DNA of 64,000 nucleotides from Chthoniobacterales bacterium. Lineage in GTDB: Bacteria > Verrucomicrobiota > Verrucomicrobiia > Chthoniobacterales > UBA6821. Below the pieces are notes generated by a model, which did not search any database, was not told the DNA's origin, and saw nothing but the letters and a program-made list of their open reading frames with translations. Below, piece after piece: positions 23,146-55,254 of this stretch. The DNA lies in the NCBI GenBank assembly GCA_019747895.1, contig JAIEQF010000013.1, forward strand, positions 67,104-131,103. The letters are read 5' to 3'. The stretch's first letter is position 1; each line of letters begins with the position of its first letter. The position numbers were made by a program, and so were the translations under genes.

Positions 23146-23306
23146 ATACCATCTTTAATAATTACTAAGACCATTTGACTTGTTCTTTTGGCGCTGAGCA
23201 TCGTTGTCATCCCTAGCGTTATCTTTGGATAGCGCTTCGGTCTGACGCCTTGCTTAACGCCAAAACTCCTGCCTCAAATAATCTCATTAATTATTAAAGA
23301 TGGTAT
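23146..23306. mobile_element. PE2 palindromic element / MITE-like, copy 1
   Basis: Perfect 19-bp terminal inverted repeat ataccatctttaataatta; internal gacttgttcttt...gcgttatc-tttg-gatagcgc...aaaactcctgc. Confidence 0.85.
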
Positions 23307-23381
23307 AATAATGATTGTACAAATTTTGGACAAAAATTTATCTTTTAGTGAAATTTCGCGAGTTTAGCAGTTTATTTTTTT

Positions 23382-24491
23382 ATGTCTTCTTTACATGCCC
23401 AGCTTTCTAATATCTACCGAGGAAAGAAAGTCTTTCTCACAGGCCACACCGGCTTCAAAGGAGCATGGCTGGCTGAATGGTTGCTGCAGCTAGGAGCGGA
23501 AGTGCACGGTTATGCTTTAGAGCCAGCGACAACGCCTGTGCTATTTCAGCAATTGAATTTGGCTTCACGATTGCATCATCAAATCGGAGATGTGAGAAAT
23601 TTTAAATTACTACAAGAATCGATCCTCTCTTTTCAACCTGATTTTGTTTTTCATTTAGCCGCTCAACCTCTTGTGCGCTATTCGTATCAAGAGCCCCTTG
23701 AAACTTACGAGACCAATGTCATGGGAACGTTGCATCTGTTGGAGGCGCTCCGAGAATTGCAGAAAATTTCTTCTCATCGCATTGCTGCGGTGATGGTCAC
23801 GACCGATAAGTGTTATGAGAATAAGGAGGATCAGACTGCTTATCACGAAGATCATCCTCTCGGCGGACATGATCCTTACAGCTCGAGCAAAGCGATGGCT
23901 GAAATTGGAACAGCAGCCTATCGGCGTTCTTATTTTTCAAATGCTTCTGCAGTGCATGTGGCTACCGCTCGTGCTGGCAATGTGATTGGTGGAGGAGATT
24001 GGTCGGCTGATCGTATTGTTCCTGATGCTATTCGTGCCTTAGAAAAAAAAGAACCGATCTTTGTTCGCAATCCTTCTTCCGTAAGGCCTTGGCAGCATGT
24101 TCTGGAGCCGCTCTGCGGGTATTTGATGTTGGGGGCTCAACTCATGCAAGATCGTGAATTAGCAGGAGCTTTTAATTTTGGTCCTCATCCCGAAGAAAAT
24201 TATTGTGTCGCTGATGTGGTGACCGAAGTTTTGAAATCCTGGCCAGGCTCGTGGCAAGATCGGAGTGATCCGACTGCGCTCCATGAAGCACGTCATCTAA
24301 ATCTCTCCATCAAAAAAGCTGTCGATCTTTTGGGATGGTCTCCTGTTTGGAATTTTGAAAAAACAATAACGAAGACTGTTGAGTGGTATCGTCTGCATCA
24401 CGAAGATCCCAAAAGTACACGTGCATTAACTCAGGAGCAGATTGTTTCTTACGAAGCGGATGCAGAGGCTTCTGGGATCTCACTTTCTTGA
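23382..24491 (+). CDS. rfbG: CDP-glucose 4,6-dehydratase
   Basis: TGHTGFKGAWL, HLAAQPLVR, TTDKCYEN, DPYSSSK, RPWQHVLEPL. Confidence 0.95.
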   Translation: MSSLHAQLSNIYRGKKVFLTGHTGFKGAWLAEWLLQLGAEVHGYALEPATTPVLFQQLNLASRLHHQIGDVRNFKLLQESILSFQPDFVFHLAAQPLVRYSYQEPLETYETNVMGTLHLLEALRELQKISSHRIAAVMVTTDKCYENKEDQTAYHEDHPLGGHDPYSSSKAMAEIGTAAYRRSYFSNASAVHVATARAGNVIGGGDWSADRIVPDAIRALEKKEPIFVRNPSSVRPWQHVLEPLCGYLMLGAQLMQDRELAGAFNFGPHPEENYCVADVVTEVLKSWPGSWQDRSDPTALHEARHLNLSIKKAVDLLGWSPVWNFEKTITKTVEWYRLHHEDPKSTRALTQEQIVSYEADAEASGISLS

Positions 24492-24493
24492 TC

Positions 24494-52264: not shown

Positions 52265-54070
52265 ATGAAGGCAAAAACCAACCGCTTACTGATTTTAGCA
52301 TTGCTGTTTTTTCTTGTTGGATCGACAAGAGAACTTGTTGCTTTCCCCATGGAGAGAAAGGGTGAGGAAAAGAAAGCTTCTCCACTTGGTTCTATAGCCG
52401 CTACAGAAGAGAAGCGTAGAGAGTCTGAGGTTTCCGAAGAGGATGATGAGGATTTGGATAAGGGAGATTTTTCTGGAATTCGCGAGGAAAATTTTCCTCG
52501 AGAAAGAAACCACGGAATCCAAGAGAGTGCGCGAACCGCTTTACAAGAGCCAGTGAATAAGGCGAGAGAAGCTTTTAAAGAGCTTCTTGATAATTCCTCA
52601 AGACAAGAGGAACTAAGACCCAATATCTTAAATCTCTTAAAAAATTATGAAGACCAACGCCAAGCTTGGATTGCAGAAGCAACAAGCCAAAGGCTCGCCG
52701 AGGTCGAGTCATTAGAAGAAGCAACAAAAGAAATCACTTTTTCCATCATCGAGAAGTTGGATTTTAGCACGGAAGAAAATGCTGCTGTTTTTTGGACCGG
52801 CTACACCTTAGAGAATCAAAGAATCGCGATGGACTATGCCAGAGAGCAAGGAAAAAAGACCATCGAAATGACACGCGATGGAATGCTGCTCGATCAGCTT
52901 GGAATGTACAAGCGTGACAGTCCTATTTTAGACGCTGATGAACATGGCCCCATCGAAGGCAAAAGTAAACTTGGAGATCTCCTCTTTGCTGCTGCCTCCA
53001 CGAAGTTTGCTCAAGGGGTTCATGGAAAAGTGACGGCCATTATCTACAAGCCCCAAACACCAGAACAACAAGCCGCCTATCAGAGATCGGCCTACGCTCG
53101 CATTGAAGAGCCGATTTTATTGGAAAGAGAGCAGCGAGGAGAGCCTGTTCTCTTTGTATCAGGAAACGGGCGTGTTGAGGTTCCAGTAGATATTATCCTT
53201 CCAGCATTAAAAGAGTTATTAAAAAAAATTGATGAGATTCAAAAAGAGATTGAGTTGCTAGCTGGAGAGAAAGCTATTCTGGAAGAGATGTGCAAAAGAG
53301 CCTCCATAGATGAGGAGATAACAGCGACAGAAATCAAAGAGCTTAAGGAACGCCTCATAAATTTAATGATTAAAAGAAAAACAATTATTGAACCGCAACA
53401 GCTTCTACTTGAAAAAAAAGAAGCCTTGAACAAAAGGAATATAAAAAAGCGTGACAAGGCGGAGGTAGGACTTAAGCAAGCAGATTCAGAAATAAAAGAA
53501 ATAAAAAAATGGTATGATGGTAGAATGCAGAATGGTAGTAATTGGGAGCGTATGATAACAGGTGCAATTGGGAGAATTATTTCAAAACCAAAAGAAACTG
53601 AACTTGAATACTGGGATAAGATAGTAAATCACAGTGTGCCTCAGCCTAAATTAATAGCTGAAAATGTTAGACATCCACAAAAGACAAAATATAGAGAGGC
53701 AGTTGCGCTTGTTTATGATATTGAGGCTGAAATTGCTTTTGATCAGGCTAAGCTTGAGTGGGAAAGGTATCCTAGTTCTGAGAATTTTAAAAATTATAAG
53801 ACTGCCGAAACAAAGGTTAAAGATATTAGTAATGCAACCATCAATTCTATTAAGATTTATGAGATTATTGAAGAGCTTGAGATGCTTGAAAAAGATGGAG
53901 TTAAGGGTAAGTTGATTAATGATGCACTTCAGCTAAGAACTTATGTTAACTATAAGGAAGCTTATGAAAATTATCTTCAAGCTATTGAAATGCGTGCTGT
54001 TGGTGACATTTCAGCATTCAAGGAGTATTTAGAAAAGGCAAAGCAAAGTGAGTTACTGGCGAAACATTAA
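52265..54070 (+). CDS. Secreted protein: signal peptide, ADP-ribosyl-cyclase (CD38-like) NADase-type domain, then coiled coil
   Basis: MKAKTNRLLILALLFFLVGS signal; motifs FWTG, TIEMTRDG, FAAASTKFA, SAYARIE match the order and spacing of CD38 LWS, TLEDTLLG, WKTVSRRFA, STFGSVE as I recall them. Confidence 0.7.
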   Translation: MKAKTNRLLILALLFFLVGSTRELVAFPMERKGEEKKASPLGSIAATEEKRRESEVSEEDDEDLDKGDFSGIREENFPRERNHGIQESARTALQEPVNKAREAFKELLDNSSRQEELRPNILNLLKNYEDQRQAWIAEATSQRLAEVESLEEATKEITFSIIEKLDFSTEENAAVFWTGYTLENQRIAMDYAREQGKKTIEMTRDGMLLDQLGMYKRDSPILDADEHGPIEGKSKLGDLLFAAASTKFAQGVHGKVTAIIYKPQTPEQQAAYQRSAYARIEEPILLEREQRGEPVLFVSGNGRVEVPVDIILPALKELLKKIDEIQKEIELLAGEKAILEEMCKRASIDEEITATEIKELKERLINLMIKRKTIIEPQQLLLEKKEALNKRNIKKRDKAEVGLKQADSEIKEIKKWYDGRMQNGSNWERMITGAIGRIISKPKETELEYWDKIVNHSVPQPKLIAENVRHPQKTKYREAVALVYDIEAEIAFDQAKLEWERYPSSENFKNYKTAETKVKDISNATINSIKIYEIIEELEMLEKDGVKGKLINDALQLRTYVNYKEAYENYLQAIEMRAVGDISAFKEYLEKAKQSELLAKH

Positions 54071-55047
54071 AAACAAAAATTGAAGAAAAAGAGCAACTCT
54101 TGAGTGTAGCTCAATCAAAGTCCGAAGTAGCTCGCATCAAGGCTATGGAAGCTTATCAAGCTTGGCTTGTTGTAGCAGAGAGAGAAAAAGAGTCTCTCCA
54201 AGAGTCAAAATTCCTCAGCAAAACAAGAGGCCGAGAAATTGTTGTATGAAAGCGATGAAGCAACAAATAAACTTTGGAATGAGGTTAAAAAACGATACGA
54301 AGAGAGCAAGATGACAAACTTGGAGGGGATGGAATTCATCGATGAAGAAGAGACGAAGGGCATGAAGGAAGCCTTTCAAGAGCATCTGAACTCACTTCCT
54401 TTCAATCAAGATTATCCTCAAGCCATCAAAGGAGAAGCACTGAAGGCTGTTCGTGAAAAGATCCCAGGAGCTTATGAAATCTTGTTGCAGCGTTATTTGG
54501 ATGCCAACAAAAAAGCAGGAGAGAATAGCCAACTTGTTTCCTTTGCTGAGGCTACTAAAAAAGCCCTCCATTGTTTTCAAGAGGAAGAGAAACGACTTAG
54601 CGATATTGAAGTCCTCTGGATAGGCATCATCGATGCCAAAAATCGCAATCTCCTTTATAGTCAAATTACTTAGAACTTACAAGTAATTGACTTGTTCTTT
54701 TTAGGAAAAGACTGCGTTCTCATCCCGTCACGTTATCATTTGGATAGCGCTCGGTCTTCGGCCTGGCCTTTTCTAAAAATTCCTGCGTTCTTCCCTGTAA
54801 TTTCTAAGTAATTTGACTATAACAAGCCGAGGCCGCAAGAGCCTATCACGCAGGAACCCCAACGCGTTGGGAAAGCCTCTCTCTGGAAGCCAAAGAACAT
54901 TACAACAGCGCCATAGAGAAGCGCAATCAAGAGGCACAACAAGATCAAACAGAGAGACTGAGTATCGCAGAGCAGCAGGCAACCAAAGTTCGGAAGGAAG
55001 CCGAACGCTTACAACGTCGTGCTTGGATGACTTCTAAGTCGCAATGA
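54052..55047 (+). pseudogene. Fragmented 3' continuation of the secreted protein (open segments ~54052-54249, 54176-54673, 54823-55047)
   Basis: Three overlapping or adjacent open frames with the same E/K/A-rich helical composition; the last break coincides with a PE2 insertion. Confidence 0.55.
54655..54822. mobile_element. PE2 copy 3
   Basis: Perfect 21-bp terminal inverted repeat ttatagtcaaattacttagaa; supplies the TAG of ORF 54239-54673. Confidence 0.88.
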
Positions 55048-55086
55048 GAGACTGCCCTTAAAACCGCAAATAAGAAAGAATACCAA

Positions 55087-55254
55087 TTATAGTCAAATTA
55101 CTTAGAACTTACAAGCAATTGACTTGTCCTTTTTAGGAAAAGACTGCGTTCTCATCCCGTCACGTTATCGTTTAGATAGCGCTGGGTCTTCGGCCTGGCC
55201 TTTTCTAAAAATTGCTGCGTTCTTCCCTGTAATTTCTAAGTAATTTGACCATAA
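55087..55254. mobile_element. PE2 copy 4, near-identical direct repeat of copy 3
   Basis: Same 168-bp sequence with only a few substitutions. Confidence 0.88.

Follow-up and report, generated by a model that had tools for sequence, protein, structure and literature searches.

PE2, a palindromic repeat family of freshwater Verrucomicrobia: probable MITE-like mobile elements with a conserved core and exchangeable arms

A 64,000-nt stretch from a Chthoniobacterales bacterium (contig JAIEQF010000013.1; hereafter the window, always meant at its full length) holds four copies of a palindrome of 159 to 162 bp, two of which contain the last codons of a gene. What are these palindromes, and how did they come to lie on stop codons? 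The family, PE2, had originally been predicted to be a non-coding element with conserved structure, either a miniature inverted-repeat transposable element (MITE) in kind or an RNA, possibly a bidirectional terminator or processing site. Copies of PE2 have moved, and in all probability they are non-coding, MITE-like mobile elements of an apparently undescribed family. The features on which the argument rests are as follows (ORF, open reading frame).

23144..23146, no strand: left target-site duplication of copy 1, TAA; the right TAA is at 23306-23308 (read directly in the sequence).
23147..23305, + strand: PE2 copy 1, arm type A (variant), 159 bp, from TACCATCTTTAATAATTA to TAATTATTAAAGATGGTA; covariance model score 147.8 bits.
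38685..38687, no strand: left TTA duplication of copy 2, holding the TA of the former TAG stop of ORF 36316.
38688..38847, + strand: PE2 copy 2, arm type A, 160 bp, from TACCACTTCCATTAAATAAT to ATTATTTAATGGAAGTGGTA; 191.4 bits, fold z -8.9.
38717..38818, + strand: conserved core as in copy 2, with the blocks common to arm types A-D (from alignments and conservation).
38848..38850, no strand: right-hand TTA duplicate of copy 2, serving on the minus strand as the TAA that stops the epimerase gene 38848-39837.
54656-54657 and 54820-54821: TA flanks of copy 3.
54658..54819, + strand: PE2 copy 3, arm type B, 162 bp, from TAGTCAAATTACTTAGAA to TTCTAAGTAATTTGACTA; 69.6 bits, fold z -6.3.
55088-55089 and 55252-55253: TA flanks of copy 4.
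55090..55251, + strand: PE2 copy 4, arm type B with one arm mismatch; 55.8 bits.

All four copies lie on the + strand, and the marker CGTTAT-N4-9-ATAGCG occurs four times in the window against 0.01 expected. In alignment the copies have a mean column identity of 74%, and the shared blocks quoted when the family was first noticed are present. Each copy folds as a single long hairpin, and for copies 1-3 the fold is far more stable than those of shuffled sequences (copy 1: -66.9 kcal/mol, z -11.2). A covariance model built from related copies and run with its filters off matched only the four PE2 copies in the window; the next scores, 20-29 bits, belonged to hairpins of another palindromic family, PE1. 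The four places given in the original prediction were confirmed; its end points took in 1-3 bases of duplicated target, and element ends were set here by the target duplications. Its description of terminal inverted repeats as perfect within a copy and different between copies fared less well, since copy 4 has one arm mismatch (GACCA vs. TAGTC) and copies 3 and 4 share arms, giving three arm types among the four copies. Arms elsewhere are not always perfect either, with three mismatches in L010 and one or two in L015, L016, L020, L025, and L034 (L numbers denote related loci, X numbers sequencing runs).

The model and a wider search also recovered further copies, with covariation. A pattern of the conserved blocks found nine loci in the genome collection, all in Verrucomicrobia metagenome-assembled genomes (MAGs) from lakes; seven of the nine were in one MAG from Lac Pavin, and most were at contig ends. 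A pattern of this kind gave 26 loci from freshwater metagenomes, making 35 further loci overall, and all loci from named genomes were Verrucomicrobia MAGs. No PE2 was found in the viral contigs searched. Four copies is therefore the count for the window and not the size of the family, which reaches dozens to hundreds of copies in each metagenome. As for the host, the YfhO-like protein of the window shares 87% identity with its counterpart in the Lac Pavin MAG and 76-80% with those of other group members. Word matches to window positions 38000-39500 were obtained in drinking-water, wastewater, pond, and lake metagenomes; an exact look-up of the adjoining T2SS-F protein gave no record.

Evidence of mobility came from the element ends. 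In type A, the three bases before TACCA equal the three after TGGTA in 14 of 16 complete copies, the repeated bases always being TTA or TAA. Types B and C carry TA flanks outside TAG...CTA, the exception being L022 (type B), with CA at the 5' side. The site of copy 2 is empty in L041 (the LacPavin MAG, whose neighbouring gene is 87% identical), where the sequence reads ...AGG TAG TCCT..., and it is empty in L045 too; similarly, a contig of run X3 has ...TGGTAGTCACTCAA joined to 38852, with copy 2 missing. In L023 a copy of PE3, a further repeat family of the window, carries PE2 as CTCC(TTA)...(TTA)TTCTTC, whereas the window copies of PE3 are uninterrupted at that point. The empty-site comparison that had been proposed for PE2 thus agrees with a 3-bp duplication in type A.

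The same sites account for the stop codons. As first noted, ORF 36316 ends ...GSYTTSIK* inside copy 2, ORF 54239 ends ...LLYSQIT* inside copy 3, and the stop codon of the minus-strand gene 38848-39837 adjoins copy 2. Removal of copy 2 together with one TTA restores GGT TCT TAG on the + strand. Its target, TTAG, consisted of two overlapping convergent stops, the TAG of the + strand gene and the minus-strand TAA of the epimerase gene. Following insertion, the right duplicate still stops the epimerase gene, and the + strand gene gains six codons, YTTSIK, before reaching TAA at 38704-38706 in the arm. Removal of copy 3 with one TA likewise gives CTC CTT TAA, a stop codon. The genes do end inside copies 2 and 3, so PE2 can be said to donate stop codons; the donation is a consequence of a target that contains TA, combined with selection against insertions inside genes. 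Long ORF bodies hold no PE2 copy.

Copies 3 and 4 stand in direct orientation around 266 bp (window 54822-55089). Within it lies a 75-codon open frame (54823-55047) that continues the phase of ORF 54239, the TAA of the insertion site being all that separates the two; the frame has no homologues among the related loci.

Copy number and context are those of an element that spreads. In drinking-water, wastewater, and pond metagenomes, word depth relative to the flanks was 5-15x for type A and 20-100x for type B, and many different flanking sequences begin exactly at the element ends. In four runs, contigs break at 55088/55089 and at 54821-54823. PE2 is found within PE3 in L019, L024, and L023, at the central TA of PE3 in the first two, and in L014 and L084 type C is nested in type A. 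Mini-hairpins of about 40-60 bp that consist only of two type-A arms with a few bases between them occur in L003 (2375-2418), L019 (5226-5268), and L095 (1207-1250); in L011 (79-239) a PE2 copy is fused to an inverted partial copy. The mini-hairpins and this fusion are derivatives of PE2 formed by internal deletion or rearrangement. In addition, 71 bases from the interior of a type-B copy are missing from a contig of run X2. Target-site duplications, empty sites, high copy number, and nesting together bear out the MITE-like character proposed for the family.

They also make it extremely improbable that the copies are palindromes evolved in place by the host, such as terminators between genes, or integron attC-like sites. 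The position of copies at gene ends, and the cassette-like 266-bp segment flanked by copies 3 and 4, would fit such a view, but target duplications, empty orthologous sites, and the many flanks in metagenomes contradict it, and no T tract follows a G+C-rich stem. For attC in particular, the ends are TACCA.../TAGTC... and not RYYYAAC/GTTRRRY, R''/R' boxes and an array are absent, a scan of 20 window ORFs, among them the flanking genes of all four copies, found no integrase, and the copies are scattered among housekeeping genes. Together with attC, a retron, a ribozyme, a 6S-like RNA, and group II intron fragments were considered and dropped, since the copies have duplications, show none of the signature motifs, and gave no Rfam matches.

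Which parts of the element are held constant? Complete copies are all 158-162 bp, and the only reading frames in them are those of host ORFs that enter an arm for a few codons. Terminal inverted arms of 18-26 bp, starting with TA, enclose a core of about 100 bp, and the outer 24 positions form 21-24 Watson-Crick pairs in every arm type, as was also seen in an inverted-repeat search. Types A-D share the blocks (T)GACTTGTTCTTTT, CGTTNTCA, the apical hairpin CGTTATS/SATAGCG, TCTTCNGCCTTG, and AAAAYTCCTGCGT, with variable helices between them. A greater conservation of loops than of stems was considered for the core and rejected (0.76 vs. 0.78 overall); conservation resides in specific blocks, both paired and unpaired.

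On this one core at least four unrelated sets of arms (A-D) are found, and all of them fold to rods of 158-162 nt. The arm types start TACCAYTTCC..., TAGTCAAATTAC..., TAGYGYATTAAATYGA..., and TACCCATGACG...; in short, type A begins with TACCA, type B with TAGTC, and type C with TAGCG or TAGTG. Besides window copies 1 and 2, the majority of copies outside the window are of type A. Type C arms (TAGCGTATTAAATTGAAAAGGGCACGC) and type D arms (TACCCATGACGTTTGAATTTTAGGAA) were recovered on the same core by the covariance model. The arms had been thought private to each copy. They are subfamilies instead, near-identical in other genomes: those of copy 2 recur exactly in L018 and elsewhere with 1-4 substitutions, mostly compensated, and those of copies 3 and 4 likewise recur in other genomes. 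In types A-D the tip lies at a constant distance from the core, 30-32 nt at the 5' end and 32-33 nt at the 3' end. MITEs usually show the opposite of this arrangement, in which the core is conserved and the arms can be swapped.

Such a pattern might be expected of structure-guided transposition, in which an enzyme recognises the core, perhaps in the form of a folded single strand, and makes its cut a set distance away. Arms would then need only to pair and to end in TA, which would explain their exchange. The retention of core blocks beside unrelated arms, the constant tip-to-core distance, the TA with which every type begins, and the almost perfect covariation of the arms, with up to four types of Watson-Crick pair at a position, all agree with this. 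Still, we regard it as distinctly unlikely: no candidate enzyme was found, the data would be explained equally by a separate cognate transposase for each arm type, and the known systems that recognise structure (IS200/IS605 TnpA, REP-associated transposases, and integron integrases) make no target duplications, whereas PE2 does.

A related proposal, to which we give a low probability, is that PE2 would be a mobile structured module and not an ordinary derivative of transposase ends. A folded core of about 100 nt, with its invariant wobble pair and conserved asymmetric loops, would be recognised by the mobilising machinery or by the host, and the arms would serve only as a ruler-like stem, about 30 bp long and ending in TA, that can be exchanged. 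If true, PE2 would represent either structure-guided transposition that still makes duplications or a mobile RNA module riding on several transposon vehicles.

Covariation was analysed on alignments of each arm type and on a model-fitted alignment. For type A (12 sequences), 96.7% of cells were paired and both sides had changed in 11 of 53 pairs, a number reached in none of 500 shuffles, while slid controls gave 1-4 pairs. With all types together (29 distinct complete copies), 93% of cells were paired and both-side changes rose to 35/53, a figure somewhat inflated because the alignment was fitted to the model and so leans towards its structure. In both cases the copies are related to each other, which limits the weight of the counts. 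An apical U.G wobble is invariant across copies; in type D its neighbours change with compensation, CGTTAT/ATAGCG becoming TGTTAC/GTAGCA. RNAalifold recovered only the apical hairpin from a mixed MAFFT alignment of types A and B, because the unrelated arms misalign. The conservation of structure that had been predicted is upheld in the further copies, all of this resting on covariation among them.

Covariation of this kind need not reflect selection on structure. Template switching during replication, an established mutational mechanism in bacteria by which quasi-palindromes are corrected, copies one arm to the other, and hairpin and covariation could both be its by-products. Arms that are mostly perfect Watson-Crick with few G.T intermediates are what this mechanism would leave, as are the mismatched intermediates in L010, L015, L016, L017, and L020. 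The asymmetric internal loops and the U.G pair, however, are conserved across all types and have not been corrected, and the constant overall length is left unexplained. We consider the by-product account possible though doubtful.

Alternatively, selection could act on RNA, with the core a functional structured module (regulatory, stabilising, or RNase-processed, in 3' untranslated regions) carried on a mobile vehicle. The common rod in all arm types, the both-side changes counted above for type A and for all types, and the invariant apical U.G with compensated neighbours in type D are in favour of this, as are PE2 pieces, with flank, in short contigs of depth 3-5 in three lake metatranscriptome assemblies. 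Yet these contigs fit read-through transcription and prove nothing more, and at such depth they could also be DNA carry-over. The Rfam scan that had been suggested for PE2 covered the window and four related loci and gave nothing at gathering thresholds; under permissive settings the best sub-threshold hit was a plant microRNA hairpin model (E = 0.05), and a tRNA/tmRNA scan gave no match. No known insertion sequence (IS) end was identified either, a result obtained without comparison to an IS reference library. The minus strand folds more stably in 19 of 21 copies, by 7 kcal/mol on average, so that no strand is favoured as the RNA; the slightly better fold of that strand means that the RNA strand cannot be read from folding. 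Orientation relative to adjacent gene 3' ends (11 sense, 6 antisense) shows no significant bias. The terminator signature of a G+C-rich stem plus a T run is absent at copies 1-3, and copy 4 has one marginal internal site, no more than shuffled sequences give. With no terminator beyond chance, no orientation bias, and RNA represented by three low-depth contigs, the proposed bidirectional terminator or processing site finds no support. Hundreds of near-identical copies, moreover, suit selfish spread better than copy-by-copy selection, and a functional RNA core is on balance rather unlikely.

The reading of PE2 as MITE-like mobile elements agrees with the properties by which MITEs are recognised: a non-coding sequence below about 300 bp, terminal inverted repeats, a target-site duplication, and dispersed copies that vary in presence and absence. 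Most likely PE2 would be moved by a cut-and-paste DDE transposase supplied in trans. For type A, the enzyme would cut with a 3-nt stagger at TWA, giving a 3-bp duplication; for types B and C, it would cut with a 2-nt stagger at TA. Since such targets contain TA and are AT-rich, surviving insertions would be those between genes or on the stop codons TAA and TAG, where a stop inside the element would take over from the original one. The element as a whole is a quasi-palindrome and would form a rod-like hairpin in read-through RNA or single-stranded DNA, and we infer that this hairpin may have a role. Taken by themselves, the duplications point to an enzyme of the IS5 family (IS1031/ISL2-like) or to an IS630-like one.

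Several observations weigh against this reading. An autonomous element with matching ends was found neither in the window nor in the related loci, about 300 kb in all. Conservation is lowest in the arms, with between-type identities of 54-65% against 65-79% for the core, the former being about the level assumed, as an expectation without a control, for unrelated AT-rich 26-mers. Two of the 16 type-A copies have unequal flanks. One of them, in L008 (2587-2746), is adjoined by a type-D copy (L091 1651-1806, K_DeepCast MAG; junction ...GTGGTA/TACCCATG...), and its one-base mismatch is attributed to the type-D copy abutting that end. Finally, the TA duplication of type B has no confirming empty site, and a TA duplication, a TATA duplication, and no duplication with longer arms are indistinguishable there; the ortholog of the region of copies 3 and 4 was sought, and the single, distant relative obtained lacks the region.

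Further searches for a partner were made in the related loci. These contained no long inverted repeats with PE2 tips, no PE2 core split by an ORF, and no multi-copy ORFs. A genome-wide scan with the type-A arm pattern, which is too AT-rich, gave mostly chance matches among the matches listed, in Clostridia and similar genomes. Two sequences of putative transposase type were seen in passing. L014 holds an IS256-like fragment, recognised by reading the sequence alone and lacking PE2 ends. In the Lac Pavin MAG, L003 encodes a YhgA-like putative transposase/nuclease (Pfam Transposase_31; 2440-2844 and 3037-3288) that has a type-A PE2 at its 3' end; no PE2-type ends surround this gene.

PE2 shares the window with two other repeat families. 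PE3, the third family, is G+C-rich, about 105 nt long, and present in at least seven copies, at the following positions.

23001-23108
49948-50052
17389-17470
61441-61473 + 61556-61627
1937-2038
28488-28661
63225-63324

Five PE3 copies lie inside long ORFs that stay open, namely a MutL-like gene, a GH31 glycosidase gene (its TIM-barrel match falls into two parts), and ORFs 16875-18368, 1207-2082, and 28465-29160; it is PE3, not PE2, that behaves like the Rickettsia palindromic elements (RPE). In runs X2 and X3, word depth of PE3 at 23006-23084 was 50-85x and that of the flank 6x. The PE3 copy of the GH31 gene is itself interrupted at 61474-61555 by an 82-nt G+C-rich insert with four short hairpins (GCAACTCGCTCGC...CGCATGTATG) and TA/TA flanks. 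Elsewhere the same insert also occurs inside PE2 copies, directly 3' of TGACTT (L016 1-100); examples come from L016, from four metagenomes (as contigs), and from a single lake metatranscriptome.

The other palindromic family, PE1, has the following window copies.

43387-43546
60363-60469
41733-41909
47183-47326
6259-6429
16729-16850

Arms of PE1 are short tandem repeats (CGCAAAGAA..., GTAACGA..., TACAGGT...) around centres of about 80-100 nt. PE1 is unrelated to PE2 in sequence and obtained only generic hairpin scores from the PE2 model. Tandem 7-8-nt repeats (AACCAATA..., CCTACAG...) adjoin PE2 in L006 after 1737 (minus strand) and in L018 after 3764, and short tandem repeats of the same kind build the PE1 arms of the window.

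MITEs are the least studied of bacterial mobile elements and Verrucomicrobia an understudied phylum. A 2024 review of prokaryotic MITEs does not mention Verrucomicrobia (PMC10969869), and literature searches on MITEs in Verrucomicrobia or Chthoniobacter, judged by titles and abstracts, yielded no such elements. PE2 is highly abundant in Verrucomicrobia of freshwater and drinking water, where it fragments metagenome assemblies; it alters gene ends by landing on stop codons, and it belongs to a network of small repeats that insert into one another. For annotation, the short C-terminal extensions and ORF ends made by PE2 should be regarded as not native. If the core is needed for mobility, PE2 would offer a tractable case in which structure, and not end sequence, is recognised.

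How, then, does PE2 compare with elements already known? Correia elements of Neisseria target TA, and PE2 resembles them as a non-coding, hairpin-forming repeat of 100-200 bp with terminal inverted repeats, TA insertion, nesting, and many dispersed copies at gene ends or between genes. It differs in belonging to another phylum, in having no sequence similarity, and in varying its arms while keeping its core, whereas Correia subtypes share repeats. AT-rich targets, stable transcript hairpins, and mutual nesting are typical of prokaryotic MITEs, and Correia transcripts are cleaved by RNase III (PMC10969869). PE2, unlike Correia, has shown no evidence of promoters, IHF sites, or RNase III action.

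The target of Tourist/Harbinger elements is TWA, and type A of PE2, with its 3-bp TNA duplication (TTA or TAA), resembles both the PIF/Harbinger "Tourist" MITEs and the IS1031 group of the IS5 family. That group is reported to prefer TNA and to make 3-bp repeats (PMC12016507). Within PE2 only type A has such a duplication, types B and C appearing to duplicate TA alone; moreover, the PE2 tips read TACCA..., unlike one IS1031-group end given there, GAACCTGTC... (PMC12016507), and no IS5-type transposase with PE2 ends was found. Types B and C resemble the "Stowaway" MITEs of the IS630/Tc1-mariner group in their TA flanks and strong hairpin. IS630/Tc1-mariner elements duplicate TA, and "Stowaway"-like MITEs combine TA flanks with strong hairpin potential. 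The 3-bp duplication of type A sets PE2 apart from Stowaway, and no IS630-type partner was found.

Like ERIC, RUP, BOX, and RPE, PE2 is a small palindromic interspersed repeat, co-transcribed with genes and able to alter gene ends; it differs in its clear duplications and defined tips, and in contrast to RPE it stays outside ORF bodies. REPINs leave no target duplication, and their REP arms, 20-40 bp long and headed by GTAG or CGTC, are conserved. PE2 shares with REP/REPIN sequences the formation of hairpins and the co-evolution of the two arms, and is distinguished by variable arms, a conserved centre, and its duplications. PE2 shares no sequence with any of the families tested, and it works like elements of the Correia, Stowaway, or Tourist type.

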